Part shown: piece by piece, positions 2,155-38,689 of the stretch
Layout of the letters: every line of letters starts with the position of its first letter
Numbering within the stretch: the first letter of the stretch is position 1
Virus record (IMG/VR): IMGVR_UViG_3300032373_000001
Direction: 5' to 3' (one strand)
From: a virus
Taxonomy: Duplodnaviria; Caudoviricetes
Length of the DNA stretch: 64,000 bases
Position numbers and translations under genes: made by a program
Notes under the pieces: generated by a model
The model's input: the letters and a program-made list of their open reading frames with translations, nothing else
Database searches by the model: none
What the model was told of the DNA's origin: nothing

Positions 2155-2811
2155 TCACTTCTTCCTCCGAAGGGGCTTGAACACCGCCGCACCCTTCTGG
2201 GCTTGGATGCGGTAGGCAGTGTCCGCCTCTTCTACAAGAGTAGGATTGTGTGTTACCGCGAGGATGTCCAAACCCAACCGATCGCTCAGCAGCGAAAGGA
2301 ACCGGGCAACGCGGGGGATGTACTGCTCGTTGATGGCCGCCAGGCTCTCGTCCAGCAGCAAGATAGGTCGCAAACCCCTCCGCGTCAGAACTACGATGCG
2401 CAGCAAGACTGACTGGACAGTCGCCACGGCCCCACCGTAGGACTCCGTCACAGACCCTACAACCTCGACACCATTCGCCTGCTTCTGGATGGTGTCGAAT
2501 TGGACGCTGACCTTGCCCCGGTGGACCCCCACCTCCGCGCGGACGCTGATGGTCTGGTCATCGAAAATCACCCCGAGCCCCTCGGTGAGGAGGGATTCGG
2601 CCGTCTTGGCGTTGCCGACGATCTCTTGGTCCAAGAGGTTTCGGAAAAGGTCAGCGACTTTCGCCAACACCTCACTCTCCTGCGTCAAGGACGCAACCAA
2701 TTCCTCGGTTGCGTCCCGGCGTCGGACCAAAGAGTCCCGGTGATGGACCGCTTCCAAGAGGCGGGCTTCGACCCCTTGGAAGCGGTCCGAAAGGTTGTTC
2801 AGTTCTTCCAC
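2155..2811 (-). CDS. SbcC/Rad50-like ATPase, C-terminal half
   Basis: Short coil, signature-like SYGGAV, Walker B ILLLDES, H-loop AVTHN; no Walker A. Confidence 0.8.
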   Translation of the reverse strand: MEELNNLSDRFQGVEARLLEAVHHRDSLVRRRDATEELVASLTQESEVLAKVADLFRNLLDQEIVGNAKTAESLLTEGLGVIFDDQTISVRAEVGVHRGKVSVQFDTIQKQANGVEVVGSVTESYGGAVATVQSVLLRIVVLTRRGLRPILLLDESLAAINEQYIPRVARFLSLLSDRLGLDILAVTHNPTLVEEADTAYRIQAQKGAAVFKPLRRKK

Positions 2812-3971
2812 AGGATGATCGCGGTGTAGCGGTTGTCGTCCGGGAACTTGTTGCCGAACAACTCCTCCCCATCCTCACCTTCGGGAGCGTTTACCCGGAA
2901 CTCCACGTACCCGCCGCGCGCCTTCTTGTAGACGCCGAGAGAAAGGGTGTCGAGGCCAAAGGTGCTGGCGACTCCCTCCAGGTAGCGAGTGCGGATGGTG
3001 AAGTCGGTCCAGTTATCCATGTCCCCCGCGAGGACCGACTTCTCCAGAGGGTACTCATCCAGCCCGCCCGCCTCGCAAGGCATGCTGGCGTAGACCTGAC
3101 CGGAGTTGTAGCTGAAGGTGACATCGCTGTGACCCTTGGGGGCACCTGCGAGGAGGACACTGAGCGCCACTGCGAACTCTTCGCGGTCCAGAGTGAGCTG
3201 GACCGGCGGGTTCTGGTCGCTGGGGATCTTCAAATCCGGGAATTCCAGCACAGGGCGGGAGACGCCGAAGTAGCTGCCGTCCGACTTCCAGAAGGTGGTG
3301 CTGCCCCCACCGCCCACCGACAGGTCGCGGTCGCTGTTCTTGATCGTGATGGAGTCCTTGCCTCCGAGGAAGCGGGAGACCGTGTTTACATCCGAGGAGG
3401 GGATGCGGATGTCGAGCCCGGTCAGCGGCAGGTCGATCTTGAGGATCGACCTGCGGTCGCTGGCCCAGAGAACACCAGCGCGGGACTCCACCTGAGCGAT
3501 CTCCGGCTTGGTGGTGTCCTCATCGCTCATGAAGAACTTGCAGAGCGCCAGCGCCCTGTTGAGGGCAGCGCCGTCGATGGTGCCCATCTCCTCCGCCGAC
3601 GCCATCAGGTTGTCGTTGGTGGGCCACTTGGTCGGGTCCAGGGAGCGGAGCCGGATGCGGGAGTGCGGCCCCTTGCACCTCACGTCACCATTGCCCTCGT
3701 ACTCCAAAGTCAGCAGACCCTCGCCGACCGCTGCGACCCACTTCTCCAAACGCCACGCCTCCACGGTGAAGGCATCCCCGTCCTCAGCGTTGTCCACCTT
3801 CGAGATGATAGGGGCCGAAGCGAAGGTCTGGCGCGAGAAGGAGTTGACCTTGAGAACGCCGCCCGAGAGCCGGAAGAGGTAGTGGGAAGAGAGGTCTGCA
3901 TCCTTGCCCACGGCAAAGCGTACAGTGCTGATCGCGGTCTCCAGGTCTTGCTGAGCCACCTGAATCTTCAT
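2799..3971 (-). CDS. DNA polymerase sliding clamp (beta/DnaN-like)
   Basis: 390 aa. MKIQVAQQDLETAISTV start, LDPTKWP, LWASDRRSI (ATDGxRL-like) and EFPDL follow the DnaN pattern; replisome context. Confidence 0.7.
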   Translation of the reverse strand: MKIQVAQQDLETAISTVRFAVGKDADLSSHYLFRLSGGVLKVNSFSRQTFASAPIISKVDNAEDGDAFTVEAWRLEKWVAAVGEGLLTLEYEGNGDVRCKGPHSRIRLRSLDPTKWPTNDNLMASAEEMGTIDGAALNRALALCKFFMSDEDTTKPEIAQVESRAGVLWASDRRSILKIDLPLTGLDIRIPSSDVNTVSRFLGGKDSITIKNSDRDLSVGGGGSTTFWKSDGSYFGVSRPVLEFPDLKIPSDQNPPVQLTLDREEFAVALSVLLAGAPKGHSDVTFSYNSGQVYASMPCEAGGLDEYPLEKSVLAGDMDNWTDFTIRTRYLEGVASTFGLDTLSLGVYKKARGGYVEFRVNAPEGEDGEELFGNKFPDDNRYTAIILWKN

Positions 3972-6162: not shown

Positions 6163-7410
6163 TTAGGGGCTCCCGAACAGGTCTAAGGCATCAAGGTCCG
6201 TAGACCTCTCAGAAGGGCCTGCCTTATTACCGTGAAGACGGGCCATCGCCAGGGGGAGATAGTCAGGGTTGAGGTCAACCCCGACATAATCGCAACCCTC
6301 AGAAAGCGCCACCATCCCCGTCGTCGCAGACCCGCTAAACGGATCCAATACCACCGGGCGGGACACCGGGGCATCGCACTTACAGGGAGGAGCCCAACCT
6401 CCGGGACAGCGCTTCTGGCCCAAGGCATTTCCCCCCGAACCGGACCCCTCCCGGACCCGCGCTCCCCCGTCCCCCCGACCCGGATCGCCCCCCACCTTCG
6501 CAGCGGTGGGGCGGAGTGCGCGGGACTGCAAAGCCCTCCCCCAAGGCTTCCCGCAAGAAGAACAGACACCCTTGGAGGAAGCACCGAGCAGGATCAAGGG
6601 GCGGACCAGCTCTGCGGGCCAGGTGGCGAAATGCGCCCCCCTGTAAGGCTTCGGGTTCACTTGAAACCCGAGCGGGTGCCCGTCGTCCGATAGAAGGACG
6701 GGCGAGTCCGCGTTCAAGACCTCCAGGGAATACTCCCAAGAGTCAGAGTTCCTCCAATTCCGCTTCCTGCCGTAACGCTGGCGGACCTCGAAGGGGTCAT
6801 AGAAGTAACGCCCCCCCGAGTCAGGGTGAGCCAGGAGGAAGACGTACTCGGTGGCCGTCGTGGGTCGGTCCAAGACCGACTCAGGCATTGGATTCCGCTT
6901 CACCCACGGAGCGGCAGACCTCAGATACCAACCGTCCTGCTGTAAGGCGAAAGCCACCCTCCAAGGGGCACCGACCAGGTCCTTCGGCTTCAACCCTTCA
7001 GGGGTCGGGGGTCGGGCCGAGTTCCGCTGACCGTTAGACCCCCTGTTGGACTGCTGCTTGAACCCCACGCGAGTACCGTGCCCCTGCCGGCCCCCCGAAG
7101 CGTAGGAATCTCCCAAGTTCAGCCAGAGAACCCCGTCCGAGCGGAGAACGCGACGAACCTCTCGGAACACCCCCACTAAAGCCTGAACGTAACCCTCCAA
7201 AGAGTCTTCCAGACCAATCTGGTCTTCGGTCGCACCGTAATCCCGCAACCCCCAATAGGGAGGGCTCGTGCTTACGAGATGCACGCTGTTCTCGGGCAAT
7301 CCGCGGAGGGTGGCACGAGCGTCTTCCCCGTAGTAGAGTTCCGCCTTCCCGCCTTGGGGGGAATAGAATACGTCAGGACTCCTCAATGGACCGCCCCGCA
7401 GGTAGGACAC
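6163..7410 (-). CDS. DNA N4-cytosine/N6-adenine methyltransferase (beta class)
   Basis: TSPPYW precedes VLDPFSGSATTG; CSSC...CKC insertion; C-terminal ALDLFG. Confidence 0.9.
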   Translation of the reverse strand: MSYLRGGPLRSPDVFYSPQGGKAELYYGEDARATLRGLPENSVHLVSTSPPYWGLRDYGATEDQIGLEDSLEGYVQALVGVFREVRRVLRSDGVLWLNLGDSYASGGRQGHGTRVGFKQQSNRGSNGQRNSARPPTPEGLKPKDLVGAPWRVAFALQQDGWYLRSAAPWVKRNPMPESVLDRPTTATEYVFLLAHPDSGGRYFYDPFEVRQRYGRKRNWRNSDSWEYSLEVLNADSPVLLSDDGHPLGFQVNPKPYRGAHFATWPAELVRPLILLGASSKGVCSSCGKPWGRALQSRALRPTAAKVGGDPGRGDGGARVREGSGSGGNALGQKRCPGGWAPPCKCDAPVSRPVVLDPFSGSATTGMVALSEGCDYVGVDLNPDYLPLAMARLHGNKAGPSERSTDLDALDLFGSP

Positions 7411-16074: not shown

Positions 16075-17526
16075 TTACTTGTCTTGTTTCTTCTGCTCCA
16101 GGTAGCGGTGCGCGATGCGCTCTGCTGCCCGGTGGCCCCGGTAGTTGGGGTCGATCAGGTGCTGGTCGCTGACCGCCCGATCGAAGGTCTCGCCGAAGTC
16201 CCGCTTCATACGCAGGTGGCGCTGCTCCTGCTCGCGCTCCAACCGAAGCTGCTTGCGGAGCTTCTTGAATCCGGGAACCTTCTTGAGACGGCGCAGGGCC
16301 TTCTCCATCTGGTCGTCGAACACGTCCTGGTCCCAGTCCATGACGTCACGGCGGGTGGGCCCGCGATAGGGCTCCGGACCCTCACCCGCAGGGTAGATGG
16401 GGCCGACTTGGCCGGTCCCACCCGGCCCCGGACGGCGCTGGCTCTCGGTGAGGAACTCCATCAGGTCCTGACGCCCCATGATGAGGCCCGCGATCTCGGA
16501 GCTGCGGAGGGCATCCTCCATCCTCGGCTTGACACCCTTCCGCCACTCGGTGTTGAACAGGACTTCCTTCTTGCGGAGAGCCTCGGAGTCGTTCGGGTCC
16601 AGGTCCAGTTGGCCGCTGCGGATCAGCATCTTCACCGCAGCGCGGGCGTTCAGCGCGACTTGACCGTTCCGGGAGAACTTGAGGAGGGAGGGGTCCTGAC
16701 GAACGAGGTCCCAGATCAACTTCTGGGTCCTCCCGGTCATCCGAGGACGGACCGCAGCGTCCACCAACGCAGCAACCTCCGGGTCCTTGTAGAGGAACTC
16801 CGTGAGCTGTTGCCAGTTGGCGTCTTCGAGGCTGCGAGGGTCAGCCACAGTCTCCTGAACCGAAAGGCCCTCGCCGACTGGGATGTCCAGCGGCATCATG
16901 AAGACCTCTTCCTTGGGCGCGGAGCGGGCCACGTCCATGCCGAACTGTCGGCCCGACTTCTGGGCGATGGCGTTGAGCCCTCCCAGGGTGGGGGCCTTCT
17001 TGGCCCGCGTTCCCAGCCAGTCGAAGACGCCTCGCCGGTTGAGCTTCGACAGCGGGGTGCCCGTGAGGGGGCTGTATCCCAGGAGAAGGCTCGAAGCGAC
17101 GTCCGCCGGCATCAGACCGCGAACAGCATCCTGACCTTGAAAGGCTCCTCGGATACCCTTCAGGAAGCTCGCGAAGACCCCCTGGTTCTTCATGCTGATG
17201 AACTTCCGGACCTCGCTGGCGCTCATCCCCCTCTCGACCATCATGACCTCAAGGAGGCGATTGGGGGTGCCATCCTTGAGGGCCTGCTGAAGCCGGGAGA
17301 AGGTGTATCGGGGCTTCTTGCTGAGGGTGTTGGAAGGTTCCCCAGTCAGGCCCTCAAGGTAGCTCGCGCGGGCGAACAGGTCGAGGTCGAGACTGGCCCG
17401 ACGGTACAGGGACGCCTGAACCCCCCTCACCGGGTCAAAGCTGGCCTCAGCGGAGGCCAGCTTCCGGCGGGAGTCGAATTGGGGCAGGGCCTTGAGGATG
17501 AAGTTGGCGACCAAAACGCGGTTCAT
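16075..17526 (-). CDS. hypothetical protein with a sigma70 region-3-like segment
   Basis: 483 aa from ATG 17526; PLDIPVGEGLSVQETVADP resembles sigma region 3.2; ends AAERIAHRYLEQKKQDK. Confidence 0.55.
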   Translation of the reverse strand: MNRVLVANFILKALPQFDSRRKLASAEASFDPVRGVQASLYRRASLDLDLFARASYLEGLTGEPSNTLSKKPRYTFSRLQQALKDGTPNRLLEVMMVERGMSASEVRKFISMKNQGVFASFLKGIRGAFQGQDAVRGLMPADVASSLLLGYSPLTGTPLSKLNRRGVFDWLGTRAKKAPTLGGLNAIAQKSGRQFGMDVARSAPKEEVFMMPLDIPVGEGLSVQETVADPRSLEDANWQQLTEFLYKDPEVAALVDAAVRPRMTGRTQKLIWDLVRQDPSLLKFSRNGQVALNARAAVKMLIRSGQLDLDPNDSEALRKKEVLFNTEWRKGVKPRMEDALRSSEIAGLIMGRQDLMEFLTESQRRPGPGGTGQVGPIYPAGEGPEPYRGPTRRDVMDWDQDVFDDQMEKALRRLKKVPGFKKLRKQLRLEREQEQRHLRMKRDFGETFDRAVSDQHLIDPNYRGHRAAERIAHRYLEQKKQDK

Positions 17527-17545
17527 GTGTGGCTCCGTGGGCTCG

Positions 17546-17561
17546 CTACGGATATCCGTAG
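17546..17561. promoter_or_regulatory. perfect 16-bp palindrome (operator-like)
   Basis: CTACGGATATCCGTAG in the divergent intergenic region. Confidence 0.45.
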
Positions 17562-17628
17562 ATAAGCTGCTGATTGAACACCCGAAAACCCTGGCTCTGA
17601 GCGAATCGATGAATTTTCCCACGATTTC

Positions 17629-17656
17629 TGATTTCCTGATCGCTCGCGTGCCGTAA
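17629..17656 (+). promoter_or_regulatory. class-1 promoter motif
   Basis: Exact TGATTTC-N15-CCGTAA upstream of 17796. Confidence 0.75.
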
Positions 17657-17795
17657 TGATTTTGTGGCGTGACCCGTACTCGGTTCGCTGACCGGGTCAG
17701 CCACACGGAGCCCCACCCGCAACGGGAACACTCTCGCTCCGTTCTTCCCACAACGTGACACCAGCCCCCTCCTGAGGGGAAAGGTTTAAAACCAG

Positions 17796-28218: not shown

Positions 28219-29382
28219 CTATTCGACTCCGAAGTCGTCCATGAAAGAAGCATCCTTGGCCTGTTCGCTGAGGTGCTTCTTTTTGCGGTATGCGTGCTGC
28301 TCTTGGGGCGAGCGATGCTTGGCCCGCCACTTCTGGTACTTGGCGAACTCCTCCTCCTGAGTGCCCGCTCCCGCCAGGTCTTCTCGGAGATACATGACGA
28401 GCGAGATGCGCTCGTAGTTCTCTTCGCCTTCCACTGCGGGCTCGATCGGGGTGTTGCCGTGGAAGTGGTGCGCGACATCCATCCCGACGAAGTCCCCCTG
28501 CCGGCAGTCGAAGGCCACCCGGAACTGGGGGAAGACTGTGTAGCCGCCCTTGTAGGTGTGCTCCCCAGCTTCCAGGACACTGAAGTTTTCCAGCCCCGCC
28601 TTGAAGTCCCCCGCGTCCTGGTGACAGGCGGTCTGGAAGTTCTTGTTGACGGTGATGGTCGAGTACACGGTGCCCGGAACAACCCACTCCCGCTTGTCGA
28701 GCTCGTGCTGCTCCACGAATTCCCGCTGGGTCTGGTAGCGGTCGGGGTGTAGCTCTTCGAAGAGCTCGGTGCACCGTCGGAGGAACGGCCACGCCTGCTT
28801 GAACTTGTCCCAGTTGTCGCGGGTGTATGCGGTCTTGCGGACGTAGGGGTTCCGGGCGGTCGGGGGGAAGAAGCCTGCAATTCCGCCCATGGTCATGTTG
28901 GCTTCGACTGTGTCGGAGATGAGCCCATCCTTGGTGACGTACTTGGCGCGAGTGCCGTCGCCCACAGGGATGACACGTGCAACGTCTCGACCGAAGCGGG
29001 TGGGGTCCACCTTGCCTCCGGCCACCCCCCGGTTCTTGGAAGGGCGGGCAGCCCCCTTCAGCCCGATATAGGCCCCCTCACACTCTTCCGGAGTGAAGAC
29101 CCCCTTGCGGAAGACCAGAAACAACCGCTCGGCCAACCCCTCTTCCTCGGTCTTCTCGTCGCCGAACATGTCGAACACGCTCTCTTGGTGCGGCGCGTAG
29201 ACGTTGGTGTCGCCGTTGACCAGGACCTCGAAGGAGTCCACGTCGATGAACTCTGCCTTGAGCTTGGCGGTCTCCTCGTCTGTGAGGAAGCCCTCTCCCG
29301 TCAGTTCTACGCAGAGGACCCCGTCCTCTCGGGTCCACTCGTACCAGACCAGTCCGTTGCTCTCTTTCCGCTGTTTGTCCAC
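28219..29382 (-). CDS. TET/JBP-family 2OG-Fe(II) DNA dioxygenase
   Basis: YSTITVNKNFQTACHQDAGD (HxD), FHGNTP (distal His), ERISLVMYLRE (2OG Arg); AGGAGG RBS before GTG 29382. Confidence 0.9.
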   Translation of the reverse strand: MDKQRKESNGLVWYEWTREDGVLCVELTGEGFLTDEETAKLKAEFIDVDSFEVLVNGDTNVYAPHQESVFDMFGDEKTEEEGLAERLFLVFRKGVFTPEECEGAYIGLKGAARPSKNRGVAGGKVDPTRFGRDVARVIPVGDGTRAKYVTKDGLISDTVEANMTMGGIAGFFPPTARNPYVRKTAYTRDNWDKFKQAWPFLRRCTELFEELHPDRYQTQREFVEQHELDKREWVVPGTVYSTITVNKNFQTACHQDAGDFKAGLENFSVLEAGEHTYKGGYTVFPQFRVAFDCRQGDFVGMDVAHHFHGNTPIEPAVEGEENYERISLVMYLREDLAGAGTQEEEFAKYQKWRAKHRSPQEQHAYRKKKHLSEQAKDASFMDDFGVE

Positions 29383-29415
29383 CCAGCACCTCCTGTTCAC
29401 TCGACTAAAAACGAA

Positions 29416-29449
29416 GCCGACCCCTCTACTTACCGTGAGAGGGGTCGGC
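29416..29449 (-). terminator. terminator-like hairpin between amidoligase and TET/JBP
   Basis: 12-bp stem GCCGACCCCTCT/AGAGGGGTCGGC, followed on the minus strand by TTCGTTTTT. Confidence 0.65.
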
Positions 29450-29473
29450 AGGCCACAACCTTAATGTTCGAGG

Positions 29474-30496
29474 TTACCCGCCGAACATGTCGAAGGCGTC
29501 GTCGGGTCGGGGGGCGATTTCCACGGGCTTGCCTTGGATGCGTCGGAGGTGCGGGAAGATGTCCTTGGAGGAGACCCCAGCGATGTCCTCGATGTCGATC
29601 AGCTCTCGCAGCTGGTTGTGGCGCGCTGCCACAACCTTGCGCGGGTTCTTGTCGAAGTTGGTCCACTGGTAGAGCTGCTCGGTCTCGAACTCGTAAGGTT
29701 CGAACTCCGGGAATTTGAACGGGCCTTCCTCTCGGAGGAACAACTCCGGGGACTTCTGCTCAGCGCTCAAGGCATGCCTCAAGAAGGCGCGGCACCAGCG
29801 GATGGCGGAGAGCATCTCGTCCATGTTCAGGGTGCCAGGGAAATGGCGGAACTCGATGGTCTCGGTCTCTTCCCACATCTGGCGGAGGTTGATGCCGGCA
29901 CGTGGGCTGAAGTACCACATGCGACCCTTCTCGGTCGCCGGTGCGTGCTCCTCGTAGAAGCCTTGGGTGGTCGTGGCTGCGAGCATCGCCGCAACTCGTT
30001 TCTTGGGCATCTTGTACTGGTGGGACTTGTGCCGCCTCTTTTCCCGCTTCCGTTCCCACTCATACACCTCGGGAGGCAGGCTGGGGTCCGTCTTGGGGAT
30101 GCGTTCCACGATGCTGAAGGCGTCTTGCTGGTGCTGGTCGATGTACCGCAGCAACCTCTTGCAGCCCTCCAGGTCGTCCTTCAGCCCCGGAACCCGCACG
30201 TGGATGTGAAGGTTGGAGCGGTAGTTGACGATGGGTGCAGGACCCCCCTTCGGGAGGGCAGCGTTGATTCGAGCGATGTGCTCGACCTGCTGTTCCGGGG
30301 TGGAGGTCGGCCTCGTGTTGATCTCACCCCCGTACCGATACAGCTTGCCGACAGGGTCGTTGGCGATGCCCGTTGAAGAAACGCAGGTGTTGTCCTTGTC
30401 GTTCCACTGAGCGCCGTCGGGAAGCTCAGCGAAGCGGAAGCAGTTGCCGTACTCCAGCTCTGCACCGTAGGTGAAGCTGTCTACATCGTATTTCAT
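29474..30496 (-). CDS. putative amidoligase (COOH-NH2 ligase, Amidoligase_2-like)
   Basis: Real start ATG 30496 (ATGA overlap); YGAELEY, GGEINTRP, SNLHIHV, RAGINL, ETIEFRHF. Confidence 0.8.
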   Translation of the reverse strand: MKYDVDSFTYGAELEYGNCFRFAELPDGAQWNDKDNTCVSSTGIANDPVGKLYRYGGEINTRPTSTPEQQVEHIARINAALPKGGPAPIVNYRSNLHIHVRVPGLKDDLEGCKRLLRYIDQHQQDAFSIVERIPKTDPSLPPEVYEWERKREKRRHKSHQYKMPKKRVAAMLAATTTQGFYEEHAPATEKGRMWYFSPRAGINLRQMWEETETIEFRHFPGTLNMDEMLSAIRWCRAFLRHALSAEQKSPELFLREEGPFKFPEFEPYEFETEQLYQWTNFDKNPRKVVAARHNQLRELIDIEDIAGVSSKDIFPHLRRIQGKPVEIAPRPDDAFDMFGG

Positions 30497-31203
30497 GGGG
30501 TCGGGGAAGCCTTGGGCTGGAGGTCCTGTTGGGACTGAGGAGAGCCGACGCTCAGCAGGCTGAGGACCCTGGCTCCGGGGGTGAGCTGCGTCTTGTAGTG
30601 CATCTTGAGCTGCATGGGGTCGTTCTCGACTCCTGACCTCAACGCGATGTCCCGCGTTGAAGTGATCAGTTGACCGTTGTTTACCTTGGTGAGGTAAAGG
30701 GGGCGCTTGCCGTTGCGGTAGGCGATCATCGTCCGGTTGGCGTGAAGCTCTACCGCCGCGATGCTGGAGTCCAGCCAATCCTGGAACGGGTTGCCTCGCT
30801 TCCGAAGGAGGAGTTCTGTGTCGTTCTTGGTCTCGCAGGCGACCCCGTAGAGACCCTCCCAGTTCTCGGGGAGCTCCTGGGAGATGACCCCGTTGTGGAC
30901 CAGCGCGGTGTCCTCAGTAGAGAGCGGCTGGTTGTACTCCAGGTCGCTGGTCGAGTACCTGCAGTGGCCGAGGAGGTACAGGTTCCCGTCTTCGTTGAGG
31001 TACTGCGAGGGGTCCTGGAGGTGACGCTCAACGAAGACCTCAGCGGGAACAGGTTCCTTGATCGTGTGCAGGTTCCCCCCTTGGAGCCATGTCATGCCCG
31101 TGGCATGCTTGCCACGGATTTGGCTCTGAAGGAACACTTCTACCAGCAGGTCAAGCTCTGCCGGCTTGGGGGCCGCGAAGTATGCCCCGATTACTCCACA
31201 CAT
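30493..31203 (-). CDS. class II (Ntn) glutamine amidotransferase
   Basis: MCGVIG (N-terminal Cys), GHCRYSTS, HNGVI, NDTE. Confidence 0.9.
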   Translation of the reverse strand: MCGVIGAYFAAPKPAELDLLVEVFLQSQIRGKHATGMTWLQGGNLHTIKEPVPAEVFVERHLQDPSQYLNEDGNLYLLGHCRYSTSDLEYNQPLSTEDTALVHNGVISQELPENWEGLYGVACETKNDTELLLRKRGNPFQDWLDSSIAAVELHANRTMIAYRNGKRPLYLTKVNNGQLITSTRDIALRSGVENDPMQLKMHYKTQLTPGARVLSLLSVGSPQSQQDLQPKASPTP

Positions 31204-32681
31204 CACTCACCCCCAAAGAGGTCGAACACATCATCGCGGGTGTCGGCCTTGATCGTATCGCCTTTGAACATCCACCCCATCCGGGCAAACTTCCCTGAGT
31301 CCAGGAAGGTGTAGCCTGCGGGATTGATGCCGGTGCGGTGCGTCAGCCGGTAGTCCAGCTGCTCAGTGCGGGACTGCCAGAGCACGTCCCAGTCGATCCC
31401 ATGCCAGCCGTCGCCCTCGCACCGTTGAATCTCCCCCGCCTGCCGGTCCAGATAGTATCCGAGGTAGCGACTGTGCTTCGGTCGCCAGATCTTCTTGAAC
31501 GAGCAGAGGCACGTCTCCATGCTGAAGAAGTCGGCGTCCTTCTTCAGGCGGGGGAAGCGGGCGTGCACCTCTGCCAAGATGGAGGCCCCCTCCTCTTCCA
31601 GCCGCTGGTACTCTCCCGCAGTCAGCTTAGTGTCGACCTCGGACTCCCGCCCCAGTGCCCAGAGCAGTCCGTTCCGGTGAGAGCGGCTGCCGCTGTAGTC
31701 CTTCAACATGAGGGAGGTGGCTTCCACCGGAACACCTGCCGTGTGCTTCAGGTGCTGGAGGAAGAACCACGTAGAATAGCGACCAAACTTGTAGAGCCCG
31801 CTGAGCTGCCCCCACAGGTTCTCGAAGGTTTCTTCCTCGGTCTCCCCGTAGAACTGAGCGAAGCGGTCGTGCTGGAGCCCGTTGCCCACCCACTCAGCAT
31901 AGCTGGCGTACATGGCCGGCAGGTGACCCTTGTTCCATTTGGTGTCGGTCTGGTAGCGGAGCCTGGAGTAGTTGGCATTGTTCCAGAGCGTCAGCCGGTC
32001 GTGCGTTGCCAGCTCGAAGTCGGGGAACTCGTTGATGATGATCCAGCTCGTCGGGAGGTAGTAGGTGTTCCCGTACAGCCAGCTCAGCCACAGTCTCTGT
32101 TCCGAGTTGTGCTCGTACCGCTCGTGGAGGTAGTTGGTCATCCACAGGGCCGGGTCACAGTCCCGGAATTGAAGGGACCATGCATACCACCGGATGAAGG
32201 CTTCCCTCCGGTTCTCCGTAAGCCTGTAGTCCCCTGGGGGAGGGGCATGGGTAGGCAGGCCGCATCGGAACAGGCGCATGGCGGAGCGGATCTGGTCGAC
32301 CACTCGCTTGTGGTCCTTGGTACCCTTGGAGTAGTTGGGGTCCGGAATCCGCGTCTCACCGATGAGGTCGCTGACCCGAACAGACTTCCCGAAGACCTCG
32401 TCGCCGAACTGCTCTCGCAGCCGACGCTCGTTGCCGTTGTCCATGTAGAAGATGACGTCGGCCCAGTCGATGAGGTCTTGGCGGACGGCGGTGGACCGGA
32501 TGCCCAGACCATCCAGGCCCCGGCTCCTCAAGGCTGTGCGCATCTTCTTCGTGGTCCGGACCCCGTCCTTGCCTTTGAGGGCAGCGGAGCGGATGTCCCA
32601 GTGAGGCTCCATTGCTTGGAGCATGATGTGCCCGGCCGGGGAACGGTTGATGTTCCCGTGGCACAAAAACAAGACGCGCAC
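31203..32681 (-). CDS. LMW-PTP-like phosphatase fused to an amino-acid:DNA transferase (aGPT-Pplase-like)
   Basis: N-terminal about 140 aa: LFLCHGNINRS...IPDPNY. C-terminal part: RDCDPAL, KFGRYSTWFF, METCLCSFKK, YLGYY, matching my recollection of clade-2 aGPT-Pplase. Confidence 0.72.
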   Translation of the reverse strand: MRVLFLCHGNINRSPAGHIMLQAMEPHWDIRSAALKGKDGVRTTKKMRTALRSRGLDGLGIRSTAVRQDLIDWADVIFYMDNGNERRLREQFGDEVFGKSVRVSDLIGETRIPDPNYSKGTKDHKRVVDQIRSAMRLFRCGLPTHAPPPGDYRLTENRREAFIRWYAWSLQFRDCDPALWMTNYLHERYEHNSEQRLWLSWLYGNTYYLPTSWIIINEFPDFELATHDRLTLWNNANYSRLRYQTDTKWNKGHLPAMYASYAEWVGNGLQHDRFAQFYGETEEETFENLWGQLSGLYKFGRYSTWFFLQHLKHTAGVPVEATSLMLKDYSGSRSHRNGLLWALGRESEVDTKLTAGEYQRLEEEGASILAEVHARFPRLKKDADFFSMETCLCSFKKIWRPKHSRYLGYYLDRQAGEIQRCEGDGWHGIDWDVLWQSRTEQLDYRLTHRTGINPAGYTFLDSGKFARMGWMFKGDTIKADTRDDVFDLFGGE

Positions 32682-32690
32682 GGGCGCCTC

Positions 32691-33308
32691 CTACTCGAAG
32701 GAGTGGATGAAGTCCAGGATCTGCTGTGCCACCTCGGATGGGGTGACGCCCTCCACCGTGATGTTGAGCAGTCGGTTCTCTTCGTCCGTCGGATCGCCCC
32801 CGTCGCCGAACATGTCGAAGAGGGAGTTGTCCTGGGGCAGGAAGCGGTCAGCGAAGCGTCGGGCCTTGCTGACGCGCCCCTTGAGCCAAGTGGGGTTTTG
32901 GTCGCTGCCCCGCTCCTTGCGGCGCGCATCCATCACTTCGTCGCTGGCCCCCAGGTGAGCGCAGAGCACCTTGACGCCTCGGTCTTCCAGGAACTTCTTC
33001 GCATTGGCGTGACTGAAGCGGTCGCCGTCGAACACCGTGTACTTGTAGGTGGCGTCGGGGAGGATCTCCTCCTCCCAGTGCTCCACGCAGGGGACCCAGC
33101 CATCGTTGGGGACCGTGTCTGCGCCGTCGAAGGTTCCGGTCCCGTAGTGGCCTGCGAACACGTAGGGGCCTCCATTCTGAAGGCACCACTTGATCTTCTT
33201 GGTCTCGTCGTGGGTGAAGTTGGTGTAGTCCTTCCCGAGGATGATACGGGCGGTGGTTGTTTTGCCGACGCCTGGAGGGCCGACGAGGAACAGCGCGATG
33301 TGGGCCAT
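32691..33308 (-). CDS. P-loop kinase of the 5hmU-DNA kinase type
   Basis: GPPGVGKTT, GHYGTGTFDGADT, FDGDRF, RRKERGSDQNPTWLKGRVSK; adjacent to the transferase. Confidence 0.75.
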   Translation of the reverse strand: MAHIALFLVGPPGVGKTTTARIILGKDYTNFTHDETKKIKWCLQNGGPYVFAGHYGTGTFDGADTVPNDGWVPCVEHWEEEILPDATYKYTVFDGDRFSHANAKKFLEDRGVKVLCAHLGASDEVMDARRKERGSDQNPTWLKGRVSKARRFADRFLPQDNSLFDMFGDGGDPTDEENRLLNITVEGVTPSEVAQQILDFIHSFE

Positions 33309-33311
33309 TTT

Positions 33312-33854
33312 CTATCCTTCCTGGGCGATCTTTACGAGCCAAGGATACAGGTTCTTGTGGTTGGGTTCGGCGTAGAGGAAGCCCCTCCCGCCTGCGTCGT
33401 GGAACTCTCGGGTGTTCCGGTCGTAGTCATCCACGAGGTAGCTCTCGGGGGTCGCGTAGAACTGCTTCTGGCGAGAGGTCGCTACGCAGTTGAACCTCCG
33501 CAGCGCTTTCAGGTCGATCAAGTCCCCGTAGTGTTTGCGGAGGAACTCTACCTTCCCGGCGTGAGCCGCCTCTCCCATGTCCCCATCGTAGGAGCCCAGC
33601 GAGGTGAGGATCTCCACGTTCCAGCCGTTCTCGTGAGCTGCCTCCATCAGGACCTTCCAGTCCTTCAGGTGGAGGGGTGCGGCTTCGCTGAAGAACTTCC
33701 TCTTGCCTACCGTCTTCCACGCCTTCACGTAGTGGGCGTGCTTTTCTCGGTCGGGGAGATGGCCGTAGGAGCCAGGCTCCCATCCGAGGAGCTGATCGCA
33801 TCGTCCGACGAAGTCCACGAGGACCCCGTCCATGTCAAGGTACAAGGTCTTCAT
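33312..33854 (-). CDS. HAD 5'(3')-deoxyribonucleotidase (NT5C-like)
   Basis: YLDMDGVLVDF, ILTS, LVDDYDRN. Confidence 0.85.
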   Translation of the reverse strand: MKTLYLDMDGVLVDFVGRCDQLLGWEPGSYGHLPDREKHAHYVKAWKTVGKRKFFSEAAPLHLKDWKVLMEAAHENGWNVEILTSLGSYDGDMGEAAHAGKVEFLRKHYGDLIDLKALRRFNCVATSRQKQFYATPESYLVDDYDRNTREFHDAGGRGFLYAEPNHKNLYPWLVKIAQEG

Positions 33855-35731: not shown

Positions 35732-36007
35732 CTACCTCTGGGTGTTTTCGTCCGCGCGGAGGATGTCTTGCAAGTATTTCTTGTGGACTGCTGCCGCCTC
35801 CGCAGCAGCTTGCTCTTCCCGCTGCTCGGTGTATACCTGTAGTCCGTTTGGAGTCAGGGCAAGCCGCCCTTCACCAGGGGTGACCACCAGACCCTTCTTC
35901 ATCAGGCGTTCGATTGCGCCTGCGTAGAGGTGGGCCTTGGGACCGCCGCGAGGAGCCTCGCCCCAGGCAGCGACCCAGCTGAGGATATGGTGCTCAGTCT
36001 CCCTCAC
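35732..36007 (-). CDS. winged-helix-like protein
   Basis: TEHHIL...AIERLMKKGLV...LALTPNG. Confidence 0.55.
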   Translation of the reverse strand: MRETEHHILSWVAAWGEAPRGGPKAHLYAGAIERLMKKGLVVTPGEGRLALTPNGLQVYTEQREEQAAAEAAAVHKKYLQDILRADENTQR

Positions 36008-37581
36008 TTGAGGCCCATACGCCTCAGGGCATCCTGGCGGCTGAAGAACCCATAGCCGTCGATCTTCTCAATCAGCTGGCGGAGAGCTTCTCGTGCCTGA
36101 GCCTCGTACTCGAAGTTGGCACCGTGCGCGTTGGCCCGAAGCTCGATGATGTACACCGCATCGCGTAGCCCCGCTTGACCCGCCAGCTCGACCTGAGTCC
36201 CCATCGGCAGGCAGAGCATCGCCAGGCCCTTCAGGCCGTTGTTGTGGAACCAGAGGTAATGCTCGCGGCTCTTCTGCATCGCCTGAGTCAGCAGCGACTT
36301 CCCCCGCTCGCTCATACAGGGATAGCTGGGGTGGATGCGGAAGGAATCGCCCTTCCCCCACAGGATGCTCATGACCCAAGGGAACGCCGTTCGGTGACGG
36401 TGCCAGTCACGAGCAACCGCGAGGCTACACCGGAAGGTGATGTCTACGTCCGCAAGGTGGTTGTAGTAGGGGTCCAGGTAGGACCGGGCACCGACCTCAC
36501 GGTCGGGGACGCTGCCTGGGATGTGGTCCCGCTTGGCGTGGAGCTTGACTCGGACCTCGGACCCCGGAGTCCCCAAGAGCTTGAAGTCCCAGTTGTACTG
36601 GCTGGGACGAGCGGCTTCTCCGAAGCCGTCGCTCTGGTCGATGACGGCTTCTCGGAGGCCCATTCCCTTGAGTCCCGGCAGGGCCTGCTGGTACAGCTCG
36701 TGGGCGCGCTGCCAAGTGTCGAGGGACCCCGCCTCCTGGAGGAGTCTGGCGCGGTTGGCTCCCTCCTTGATGATGCGGGACCGCTCGCGCAGGTCGCCGG
36801 TGTGGGCGCAGCCCGTAGCGAAGGTGCCGGGGATTGCCCATCGAGCACGGTCCAGGGCAGGGCGGAACGGCTCCTTGTCCTTGATGCCAAACTTGGCCCG
36901 GTTCTCGGCGTCCTTGAAGTGTTCCCTCCACCAGCTGACCTCCGCATCGAAGACCTCGAACCACAGTCCGTGGATCTCCTTCAGCTGGGGCCAGACCTCC
37001 CAAGTCTCGCGGGAGGTCTCATCGGCGATAAGCACCCCCGGATCTTGGGGGTTGAGCGGGTTGTGGACGCGCTTCACGTCCCGTTCCTGGCTCTTCAAGT
37101 AGTAGCACTCGCGGGCCATGGGCCAGTCCTTCCTGCGGACTGCCCTCGTCGAGAACTCCTGCCCCGAGCACAGAGGGCTGTCGAACAGCTGGTATGCCGC
37201 GAGCCAGGAGATGCCCTCTGTGAAGCATGCCGGGGAGCCGGTCAGTTCCATGATCGAGCTGTGGCCGTAGTGCTGGACGAACTTGGCGAAGAACTCCCCC
37301 ACCTTTGGGTGAATGGGATACTGCGTCAATGCATCTTCTGCCAGGCCCCGCCAATCGACGGTCTCTGGGGCGATCTCTTCGAGATTGTCCCTCAATGTTT
37401 CTTGGACGGCCTCGACCACCTCAGCGTAGCGGGCACGGATGCCTCCGACCGGCATGCGGGAAGACATCGCCGCAAACATGGCTCGAACTTCGGGTGTGAG
37501 ACGGTGGTCCAGCCAGTAGAAGCCTTCGCCCATGGGGTGCTGCGAAGCGGACCGGCTTGCGTGGAGGTATTTGAACGTCAT
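36004..37581 (-). CDS. thyX: flavin-dependent thymidylate synthase, tandem two-domain ThyX-like form
   Basis: YGHSSIME, QEFSTR, DRARWAIP (domain 1); ARDWHRHR, LPMG, IIELR (domain 2). Start may be ATG 37533. Confidence 0.7.
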   Translation of the reverse strand: MTFKYLHASRSASQHPMGEGFYWLDHRLTPEVRAMFAAMSSRMPVGGIRARYAEVVEAVQETLRDNLEEIAPETVDWRGLAEDALTQYPIHPKVGEFFAKFVQHYGHSSIMELTGSPACFTEGISWLAAYQLFDSPLCSGQEFSTRAVRRKDWPMARECYYLKSQERDVKRVHNPLNPQDPGVLIADETSRETWEVWPQLKEIHGLWFEVFDAEVSWWREHFKDAENRAKFGIKDKEPFRPALDRARWAIPGTFATGCAHTGDLRERSRIIKEGANRARLLQEAGSLDTWQRAHELYQQALPGLKGMGLREAVIDQSDGFGEAARPSQYNWDFKLLGTPGSEVRVKLHAKRDHIPGSVPDREVGARSYLDPYYNHLADVDITFRCSLAVARDWHRHRTAFPWVMSILWGKGDSFRIHPSYPCMSERGKSLLTQAMQKSREHYLWFHNNGLKGLAMLCLPMGTQVELAGQAGLRDAVYIIELRANAHGANFEYEAQAREALRQLIEKIDGYGFFSRQDALRRMGLK

Positions 37582-37657
37582 GCGGGGGACTCCTTTTGAG
37601 GTCCTTTTTACCCGATGGACTGCCTATCAACCTGTCGAGGTCAGCAGGAGGAATTCG

Positions 37658-38689
37658 ATGCTGTCCATCCAAGCCCGTGCGTGGCGTGTATTGGCCCGTT
37701 TCCGCCAGAAGAATGCGGGTCCCCTCACAGACGTAAGCAAGCTCCGCCACCAAGCGGTGTTCCTCATGGGAGCCGGAGGCTCGGGCAAGGGTTATGTCTC
37801 CCATCGCTGGTTGAAGTACATGCCAGGGATCGGTGCCGCAGGTGCCTCTCGCAAGGAGTGGGGCGAGCGTGCCCTGCAAGAGATGAGCGAGCAGATGCGC
37901 GGCCTCTCCAACATGAGCTTCGAGAAGGCAAAGGCTGCCCTGGAGAAGAAGGGCATCCGTATCGAGCTGGTCGAAGGCGGGCGTGCCTCACTCCCCTTTC
38001 GCCTCTACACCTACGACAGCAGGGGCCAAGAGCACTTGGTGGCCCCTGCTCGCTGGGAAGAAGATCTCCCTCCTCAGATCTACGAAGAGGTCCAAGGACT
38101 GAAGGAGGTCGTCTTCGGCACCCCGGTCCATGAGCTTCCTTCCTACTGGAGACAGGTGAACCCTGACATCTACAAGGAGGAACTGGCCGGGTACATGGAG
38201 AGTCAGCCTGGGTATGTCCACGAGATGTCCTCGGAGATGTCTAAGGCATACTTCGAGGCGGCTTTGGAGACCGGTGACCCCCTCTTCGTCGACGGGACCG
38301 GCAGTAACCTCCGGAAGATGAATGCCCAGATCCAGGCGGCGAAGGCCGCTGGTTACAGGGTCTCGTTGGTCTTCGTGTTCGTGCCTCTCGCGGTGAACCA
38401 GATCCGAAACGCCACTCGCGCGCGTAAGGTCAACCCGATGGAGGTCACCCGTCAGTGGAAGCTGATCTCCAAGAACTACGCTGCCCTGCGGAACGTCGCC
38501 GACAAAGCCACTGTCGTCATCAACCGGAACGACCCTTCGGACCGCAAGAAGTACATCCAGAACGCGGACTTCATCAACGAGTTTATCCGCCGAGGGACGC
38601 GCGGCCAGTACGATGACCTGTACGCGCTGGTCGCAGCTCAGAGCCCCAACGAGTTGAGGGACTGGGGCGCGTTGCTCAAGGGGGAGTGA
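37658..38689 (+). CDS. zeta-toxin-like P-loop kinase
   Basis: AGGAGG RBS; FLMGAGGSGKG, VNPDIYKE, LFVDGTG, GYRVSLVFV...RNATRARKV. Confidence 0.7.
   Translation: MLSIQARAWRVLARFRQKNAGPLTDVSKLRHQAVFLMGAGGSGKGYVSHRWLKYMPGIGAAGASRKEWGERALQEMSEQMRGLSNMSFEKAKAALEKKGIRIELVEGGRASLPFRLYTYDSRGQEHLVAPARWEEDLPPQIYEEVQGLKEVVFGTPVHELPSYWRQVNPDIYKEELAGYMESQPGYVHEMSSEMSKAYFEAALETGDPLFVDGTGSNLRKMNAQIQAAKAAGYRVSLVFVFVPLAVNQIRNATRARKVNPMEVTRQWKLISKNYAALRNVADKATVVINRNDPSDRKKYIQNADFINEFIRRGTRGQYDDLYALVAAQSPNELRDWGALLKGE

Follow-up and report, generated by a model that had tools for sequence, protein, structure and literature searches.

A predicted post-replicative thymine hypermodification cassette with a GATase-linked AADT and putative beta-clamp tags in a Caudoviricetes virus

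The closest described relatives of the system reported here are phage cassettes in which a dioxygenase of the TET/JBP family stands in for a dUMP hydroxymethylase. Lee et al. (PMC8989533) found metavirome contigs that have no dUMP hydroxymethylase and in which a TET_JBP gene adjoins genes for a 5-hydroxymethyluracil (5hmU)-DNA kinase and an amino acid:DNA transferase (AADT); they inferred oxidation of thymine within DNA and gave the function of the amidoligase and amidotransferase partners as unknown. O'Toole et al. 2026 (PMC13229309) showed experimentally that phage TET/JBP-family enzymes oxidize thymine in DNA after replication, defined ParB-dependent and ParB-independent subclasses of these thymine dioxygenases, and reported that clade C1 is consistently linked to glutamine amidotransferases (GATases), to P-loop kinases, and to AADTs. 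Here, we analyze a cassette of this kind at positions 28219–33854 of a 64,000-nucleotide stretch of a Caudoviricetes virus (IMG/VR record IMGVR_UViG_3300032373_000001), hereafter the window. A preliminary description of this DNA had supposed that similar neighborhoods might have been predicted before, as indeed they were in the TET-for-hydroxymethylase cassettes of PMC8989533, and had held that characterized phage TETs act only on 5-methylcytosine (5mC), a statement now out of date since phage thymine dioxygenases have been shown (PMC13229309).

The general pathway idea is already published, so the cassette is not categorically new; the AADT–GATase module and a short peptide tag shared by four of the cassette enzymes, which we predict to bind a sliding clamp, go beyond the literature searched. 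We lean, with modest confidence, toward reading the locus as a post-replicative thymine hypermodification cassette with an ammonia-using AADT, an N-acylating amidoligase, and clamp tags. Domain identities, synteny, the joint inheritance of the module, the spread of the tag, and the clamp fold are shown by the data; each chemical step, the substrates, and clamp binding are inferred. Phage DNA with hypermodified thymine is protected against restriction and CRISPR nucleases, and the enzymes that make such bases are useful for DNA-labeling tools. For the amidotransferase and amidoligase of such cassettes, whose roles are listed as unknown, the module analysis leads to an assignment that can be tested: AADT and the GATase would carry out glutamine-dependent amination, and ATP-dependent N-acylation would follow.

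The cassette and the route it would encode

In the block previously described, at 28219–33854, six genes share an orientation on the minus strand, have high third-position GC, and keep intact catalytic motifs; Pfam scans, which covered nearly all window open reading frames (ORFs) of at least 100 aa, together with PHROG matches and motifs, identify them as follows.

33312..33854, minus strand: HAD-superfamily phosphatase, NT5C-like, 180 aa (PHROG 2643 at 2e-24; DMDGV motif)
32691..33308, minus strand: P-loop kinase, candidate 5hmU-DNA kinase, 205 aa (Ploopntkinase3, PF18751, and Walker A)
31203..32681, minus strand: fusion of a low-molecular-weight (LMW) phosphatase to AADT, 492 aa (LMWPc residues 1-145; AADT residues 151-450)
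30493..31203, minus strand: stand-alone class-II (N-terminal nucleophile, Ntn) GATase, 236 aa (GATase_6/7; no clamp tag)
29474..30496, minus strand: ATP-dependent carboxylate-amine ligase (amidoligase, glutamine synthetase (GS)/YbdK fold), 340 aa (Amidoligase_2 and AlphaFold2 model)
29407..29449, minus strand: terminator-like hairpin and U-run between amidoligase and TET (dG -34.1 kcal/mol, z -4.75 by folding)
28219..29382, minus strand: TET/JBP Fe(II)/2-oxoglutarate (2OG) dioxygenase, 387 aa, with an N-terminal extension of ~180 aa (Tet_JBP match)

Read together, these enzymes would act on thymine already in DNA. Thymine made by a ThyX encoded nearby would enter DNA normally, the TET/JBP dioxygenase would oxidize it there to 5hmU, the P-loop kinase would phosphorylate 5hmU to 5-phosphomethyl-U, and AADT would displace the phosphate, most probably with glutamine ammonia released by the GATase as the nucleophile, to give 5-aminomethyl-U. 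The ATP-dependent amidoligase would then acylate this amine with a carboxylate, leaving an amide-linked side chain; the amine-capping enzyme, a GNAT in most phages, would here be an amidoligase. We guess that the carboxylate is glutamate, because it is the by-product of the GATase and the usual substrate of the GS/YbdK fold. An N-acylated 5-aminomethyl-U has precedent as a product class in PaMx11, which arrives at 5-acetylaminomethyl-U along another route (PMC8989533). The core of this order, TET oxidation followed by phosphorylation of 5hmU and substitution by AADT, had been put forward in the preliminary description and is backed by homology, by synteny, and by both PMC13229309 and PMC8989533. 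The tagged enzymes would dock on the phage beta clamp, so that modification would follow the replication fork. More tentatively, the whole line (dioxygenase, kinase, ammonia-using AADT, amidoligase, and methyltransferase) may dock on the phage's own beta clamp in place of ParB, with glutamine split into ammonia placed on the C5-methylene and an acyl group, possibly glutamate, placed on that amine.

The tight spacing claimed earlier is borne out: the stop of the AADT gene runs into the GATase start, a shared ATGA ends the GATase gene and opens that of the amidoligase, and the other gaps in the block up to the amidoligase are 3–9 nt (9 nt from kinase to AADT fusion). The GATase is translationally coupled to both neighbors; its start at ATG 31203 gives the required N-terminal Cys. 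Two starts were corrected, that of the amidoligase to ATG 30496 rather than the long TTG ORF and that of the TET probably to GTG 29382, which is preceded by AGGAGG. A terminator scan with a loop limit of 3–8 nt did not detect the amidoligase–TET hairpin, probably because the loop, read from the sequence as 10 nt, exceeds that limit. The cassette is not a chance grouping: a relative with 69% identity (L007) has the LMWPc–ADDT–GATase–amidoligase–TET set as well. No cultured phage is close, and a Megablast search of cultured phages with the cassette gave no match.

The TET matches Tet_JBP (PF12851) at 71.8 bits (cut-off 34.9) over residues 182–340, and 25 homologues all keep its iron triad and 2OG arginine (H254-x-D256, H308, and R325); the enzyme is predicted to convert thymine to 5hmU. 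The kinase scores 24.6 bits (E 2e-5) against Ploopntkinase3, just below the cut-off of 27, with a Walker A GPPGVGKT, and is 64–74% identical to kinases that stand beside AADT and TET in five related loci (L001, L002, and L005–L007). The HAD gene, with its DMDGV (DxDxT/V) motif, scores 15 bits against Pfam NT5C, below the cut-off of 24.8, and its homologues adjoin the kinase in L001, L002, and L009. These two below-threshold scores count against the assignments on which our reading is built. Because the HAD enzyme bears no clamp tag, its substrates are probably soluble nucleotides or another small molecule.

The AADT part of the fusion matches ADDT (PF18724) at 83.1 bits (cut-off 26.2) over residues 182–401, and tblastn with AADT retrieved 383 phage records, ViI-like Salmonella phages among them. 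Its LMWPc part (PF01451, 51.9 bits) has a CX5RS P-loop, CHGNINRS, at residues 7–14 and a DP loop, IPDPNY, and LMW protein tyrosine phosphatases in the PDB match the domain at E 7e-9; in L007, LMWPc and ADDT are separate genes. Because LMWPc is fused to AADT here and to amidoligases elsewhere, the phosphatase is an integral step of the pathway. Its probable role is to dephosphorylate sites that are unreacted or intermediate, with unreacted 5-phosphomethyl-U or a phosphorylated intermediate as possible substrates.

The GATase matches GATase_6 at 39.7 bits (cut-off 27) and keeps the N-terminal MCG (MCGVIG start) and the RYST, HNG, and NDTE motifs, with equivalents of Cys1, R82, N104-G105, and D128 present. 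The Amidoligase_2 match is marginal (23.5 bits against a cut-off of 22), with family homologues up to E 8e-11; however, the AlphaFold2 model (pLDDT 93.8, tail 333–340 disordered) aligns with YbdK (1tt4) at Z 10.9 (root-mean-square deviation 4.7 Å over 230 residues) and with glutamine synthetases at Z ~9.5, and its structural matches are solely GS, glutamate-cysteine ligase, YbdK, and PafA-type ligases, so that the assignment is confirmed at the level of the modeled structure. A phmmer search of the PDB gave no useful match for the clamp, amidoligase, TET, or GATase; a TET match to channelrhodopsin was spurious.

The amidoligase family comprises 329 clusters, among them proteins fused to GATase, LMWPc, a TET-associated glycosyltransferase (TAGT), or a kinase. 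LMWPc–amidoligase fusions recur within it, once as amidoligase::LMWPc::TAGT; further fusions are one TAGT::amidoligase and one with an AAA_33 kinase (homologues P0244, P0250, P0266, P0269, P0319, P0278, and P0258). The ligase–phosphatase pair may be a general DNA-tailoring unit.

A shared tag, the phage beta clamp, and ParB

The four cassette enzymes that would have to contact DNA, namely the kinase, AADT, amidoligase, and TET, carry a tag with the consensus [FL]D[LM]FG, as does an N6/N4 methyltransferase of the window; the GATase and the HAD enzyme have none. The exact form FD[LM]FG occurs four times in the six frames of the 64-kb window, always in a cassette enzyme. The tags, the methyltransferase, and the proposed docking hub are listed here.

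32805-32819, minus strand: internal tag of the kinase, near its C terminus (SLFDMFGD)
31212-31226, minus strand: C-terminal tag of the AADT fusion (DVFDLFGGE)
29480-29494, minus strand: C-terminal tag of the amidoligase, disordered (DAFDMFGG)
29161-29175, minus strand: tag in the N-terminal extension of TET (SVFDMFGD)
6163..7410, minus strand: N6/N4 DNA methyltransferase (N6_N4_Mtase, E 2.5e-33) with the C-terminal tag LDALDLFGSP (6172-6186)
2799..3971, minus strand: bacterial-type beta sliding clamp, 390 aa, proposed docking hub (AlphaFold2 and Foldseek)

The position of the TET tag is kept in homologues down to 45% identity, and in related loci tags lie at the termini or linkers of kinases, AADTs, amidoligases, methyltransferases, and other tailoring enzymes, including a similarly tailed methyltransferase that sits inside the cassette in L005. 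ParB-type cassettes have the tag in 0 of 35 AADTs, 0 of 38 kinases, and 0 of 3 amidoligases, though their AADTs are the closest relatives of the one in the window. The tag was rejected as a general feature of the amidoligase family, in which 7 of 125 tails fit the loose pattern. Also in the window, a 558-aa protein without a Pfam or PHROG match (16075-17751, minus strand), which adjoins a RecD2-like helicase, has an internal LDLDLFA at residue 123 and may be another clamp client.

The clamp ORF has no Pfam match and no PDB sequence match. Its AlphaFold2 model (pLDDT 91) nevertheless aligns by Foldseek with DnaN clamps at TM 0.77–0.83 and E ~1e-21, which confirms, for the model, the three-domain bacterial beta clamp fold. 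A T4-type gp45 clamp, an idea prompted by the LFDMFDF ending of RB69 polymerase, was dropped as the hub because the phage clamp is of the bacterial beta type. The identical clamp protein (P0122) is present on contigs as long as 410,989 bp, which makes a very large phage the probable source of the window; among the homologues of the clamp, some are labeled as Planctomycetaceae bins.

To this clamp we docked AADT residues 451–492 in a complex model, which scored an ipSAE of 0.71 against 0.00 for the best control; 58 of 80 solved complexes and 2 of 110 mismatched pairs reach the 0.71 mark. At least 55% of contacts are shared by the three runs, the partner pLDDT is at least 40, and in the model V485, F486, L488, and F489 of AADT contact clamp residues 171–176, 245–249, and 385–387. 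The tag is thus predicted to dock in the canonical pocket between clamp domains II and III, a placement that resembles known clamp–peptide complexes.

A ParB-like gene precedes all 70 short TETs (~300–330 aa) that have upstream sequence and none of 15 long TETs (386–471 aa), most of which carry the tag in their N-terminal extension; long TETs with a tag and short TETs with a ParB partner exclude one another. The window has no ParB_N match. A clamp homologue is encoded both in the window and in a 266-kb long-TET record (L010); none was found in three other, incomplete long-TET records or in the complete ParB-type genome searched. ParB is itself a DNA-sliding clamp, and we therefore propose that beta-clamp docking replaces it in this lineage: the clamp tag would stand where ParB stands for the short phage thymine dioxygenases. 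The same pattern suggests a general way for phages to couple base modification to the replication fork. That ParB-less clade C1 members were reported inactive in E. coli assays (PMC13229309) weighs against the activity we assign to TET; if docking does replace ParB, such dioxygenases may need their own clamp, which may explain this result.

The most serious competitor to clamp docking, which we rate as possible yet clearly less probable than the proposal as a whole, is that the tag is real but does not bind the clamp, serving instead another hub (a scaffold, the enzymes themselves, or a single-stranded DNA-binding protein) or acting as a degradation or packaging signal. The tag has no glutamine of the classical QL[SD]LF motif, the TET has a second conserved C-terminal motif, and the docking rests on a prediction whose score may reflect memory of solved clamp–peptide complexes and whose partner pLDDT fell below 50 in one run; all of these but the second motif also speak against our reading. 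So does the form of the enrichment test, in which a looser tag pattern was found in 5 of 7 modification enzymes and 2 of 69 other proteins (p = 2e-5), the pattern having been chosen after the data were seen. On the other hand, the tag is limited to the long-TET lineage without ParB, a clamp homologue was found in the window and in L010 and in neither the three incomplete long-TET records nor the ParB-type genome, the hydrophobic tag positions fill the canonical pocket in the complex model while controls score 0.00, and the tags lie in disordered termini, as clamp-binding peptides do. There is also a precedent for a modifying enzyme on a clamp: T4 alpha-glucosyltransferase binds the gp45 clamp (PMC13216743), and it was the sole case of a clamp-tethered modifying enzyme found in the literature searched.

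The second TET motif, [DE]F[ML]x[DEK]FG, is shared by the long TETs at their C terminus and reads SFMDDFGVE here (window 28219-28260, minus strand); it may be a second docking site. ParB-dependent TETs have been reported to require their C-terminal extension for activity.

Use of the ammonia and source of 5hmU

Metagenomic TET homologues with 45–70% identity occur on large contigs, and in six loci the kinase, AADT, and TET core is kept at one genomic position while the tailoring genes between are swapped.

L001 and L002: PIG-L deacetylase, glycosyltransferase, methyltransferase, inositol-phosphate synthase
L003 and L006: aspartate decarboxylase, amidoligase-like protein, pyridoxal phosphate (PLP) enzyme
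L005: N6/N4 methyltransferase, between kinase and AADT
L007: LMWPc, ADDT, GATase, amidoligase, the same set as in the window with LMWPc separate

A single-sequence scan of IMG/VR gave no match; an alignment-based scan added 80 loci, for 86 TET loci in all, which contain a kinase in 53 cases, an AADT in 51, a GATase in 37, an amidoligase in 7, and LMWPc in 2, with kinase and AADT together in about 50. The common form in small phages is ParB-TET-GATase-GNAT-AADT-kinase, and a variant has an amidoligase after the GATase.

Against this background, the AADT has a history of its own. The window TET and kinase are 59–74% identical to those of close relatives, whereas the AADT is just 20–30% identical, except in L007 (62%), and the close TET relatives with 20–30%-identical AADTs lack a GATase. 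Conversely, the window AADT is 49–60% identical to the AADTs of ParB-type GATase cassettes, whose TETs are 33–40% identical. The 32 best matches to the AADT all come from loci with a GATase; in a maximum-likelihood AADT tree, sequences linked to a GATase fall into two well-supported clades, and the GATase label requires two changes on that tree against a shuffled mean of 15, with 0 of 500 shuffles as low. By these identities, matches, and label changes, the AADT subtype and the GATase move as one module, independent of TET and kinase phylogeny. Moreover, in 33 of the 37 TET loci with a GATase, neither an amidoligase nor another ATP-dependent ligase is there to take the ammonia, and all but about two of the loci have this AADT subtype. 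Co-inheritance with the GATase, mostly without a ligase, points to AADT as the ammonia user. From these sequence comparisons, we favor GATase-fed amination of 5-phosphomethyl-U, followed by N-acylation by the amidoligase, over the reverse assignment.

That reverse assignment, the order of the preliminary description, is not supported as it was written, given how often GATase (37 of 86 loci) and amidoligase (7 of 86) occur and given that the GATase follows the AADT subtype; we think it doubtful, though well short of negligible. AADT would add an amino acid to 5-phosphomethyl-U, the amidoligase would activate its carboxylate with ATP, and GATase ammonia would yield a carboxamide cap. Several observations fit delivery of ammonia to the amidoligase and thereby tell against our preference: the ATGA coupling of the two genes here, a natural GATase::amidoligase fusion (P0371, in an L034-type cassette), and the GS/YbdK fold, which typically couples an activated carboxylate to ammonia or an amine. 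Likewise, characterized AADTs take amino acids (PMC8989533), using glycine, serine, or diamines, and none is known to use ammonia (PMC8989533, PMC13458397). Set against these are the ligase-less GATase loci with their near-constant AADT subtype and the amidoligase homologues that lie beside an aspartate decarboxylase without any GATase in L003 and L006, for which ammonia is no fixed partner.

In these last two loci (L003 12718-15016 and L006 3777-6923), the amidoligase-like protein is accompanied by the aspartate decarboxylase and the PLP enzyme, which suggests that in those phages the ligase takes beta-alanine or a similar amine. GNAT is annotated in two ligase-less GATase cassettes (L017 124-4385 and L034 9334-14439), which belong to small phages with a T7-like primase-helicase and have the order ParB-TET-GATase-GNAT-AADT-kinase; judged from their gene content, these cassettes would make 5-acetylaminomethyl-U by a glutamine-dependent route unlike that of PaMx11.

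The proposal of GATase-fed amination, like the reverse order, takes 5hmU to come from thymine in DNA. By Pfam, the 64-kb window has no ThyA-type dUMP hydroxymethylase, C5-methyltransferase, glycosyltransferase, or ParB, in agreement with the preliminary description, which had named the first three. The wider genome search it suggested, with the window and its relatives as scope, found no dUMP hydroxymethylase or C5-methyltransferase either in the window or among five related viral records, of which one is complete; a ThyA homologue was likewise lacking in these records. In seven related loci, no alternative source of 5hmU or 5mC lies within 10 kb. A 100%-complete 53.8-kb relative genome has the TET, GATase, amidoligase, AADT, and kinase, together with ParB and GNAT and without LMWPc or HAD. 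The ThyX placed near the cassette by the preliminary description is present, at 37581-36004, with a second gene overlapping its start.

36004..37581, minus strand: ThyX-like flavin-dependent thymidylate synthase, 525 aa (Thy1 E 3e-13, residues 380-505; RHR motif)
37532-38689, plus strand: zeta-toxin/AAA_33-like kinase, 385 aa, overlapping the ThyX gene start by ~50 nt on the opposite strand

About 380 aa of the ThyX-like protein, its N-terminal part, lie outside the Thy1 match. ThyX would supply dTMP, and its presence here, with a dCMP deaminase in relatives, indicates that thymine is made rather than excluded.

It is improbable, in our estimate, that TET is not the source of 5hmU, that is, that a dUMP hydroxymethylase elsewhere supplies 5hmdU or that TET acts on 5mC from an unseen methyltransferase. 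This account gains from the fact that 64 kb were examined of a genome of possibly ~411 kb, so that a dUMP hydroxymethylase could lie elsewhere, a point that weakens our case for oxidation in DNA. It gains too from the NT5C-like nucleotidase, which could help deplete dTMP, as in 5hmU phages. It is opposed by the indications that thymine is made, by the five related records, and by the linkage of TET to 5hmU-processing genes: TET is syntenic with kinase and AADT in all long-TET relatives examined except L011 and L012, which have TET only. Least probable of all is oxidation of thymine by TET to 5-carboxy-U and its conversion by amidoligase and GATase to 5-carboxamido-U, with kinase and AADT as a separate branch, since, although PMC13229309 reports that phage thymine dioxygenases support iterative oxidation and a ligase with a GATase is the standard means of turning a carboxylate into an amide, six of the seven amidoligase loci also have kinase and AADT (the seventh, L033, is weak and ~9 kb from TET), amidoligase and TET alone were never seen as a minimal pair, and the GATase tracks the AADT subtype rather than the TET subtype.

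Comparison with known systems

The ParB-dependent clade C1 cassettes (PMC13229309; L017, L034) are nearest to the present one. They share the TET/JBP oxidation of thymine in DNA as entry step, the AADT subtype (49–60% identity), the GATase, and sometimes an amidoligase. The window differs in having neither ParB nor GNAT, a TET with a 180-aa clamp-tagged N-terminal extension, a kinase only ~25% identical, LMWPc fused to AADT, and the HAD gene; its enzymes are clamp-tagged, and the phage encodes a beta clamp.

With the ViI, M6, and PaMx11 phages (Lee et al. 2018; PMC8989533), the cassette has in common a 5hmU-DNA kinase followed by replacement of the phosphate by AADT, and the PaMx11 end product, 5-AcNmdU, an N-acylated 5-aminomethyl-U, is close to the product class proposed here. 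In those phages, however, 5hmU enters at replication via a dUMP hydroxymethylase, the amine comes from glycine and an FAD enzyme, and acylation is by a GNAT, whereas here we propose oxidation of thymine in DNA, probably glutamine via the GATase, and an ATP-dependent ligase.

In the making of base J, the kinetoplastid JBP1/2 enzymes, also of the TET/JBP family, hydroxylate thymine in DNA and the resulting 5hmU is then decorated; there it is glucosylated without phosphorylation, and JBP1 targets itself by a J-binding domain rather than a clamp tag.

As for the tag, the bacterial beta-clamp-binding motif QL[SD]LF occurs in Pol III alpha (as QADMF), Pol IV, MutS, and Hda. The tag shares with it a five-residue hydrophobic-acidic-hydrophobic-aromatic pattern at disordered termini or linkers, and differs in that its first position is not glutamine, a glycine is conserved after the phenylalanine, and its clients are base-modifying enzymes.

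Finally, T4 alpha-glucosyltransferase and gp45 (Sommer 2004, as cited in PMC13216743) likewise place a DNA-modifying enzyme on the replication clamp. In that case, one enzyme meets a PCNA-like trimeric clamp; here, by predicted binding, four or five tagged pathway enzymes would meet the phage's own dimeric beta clamp of bacterial type.

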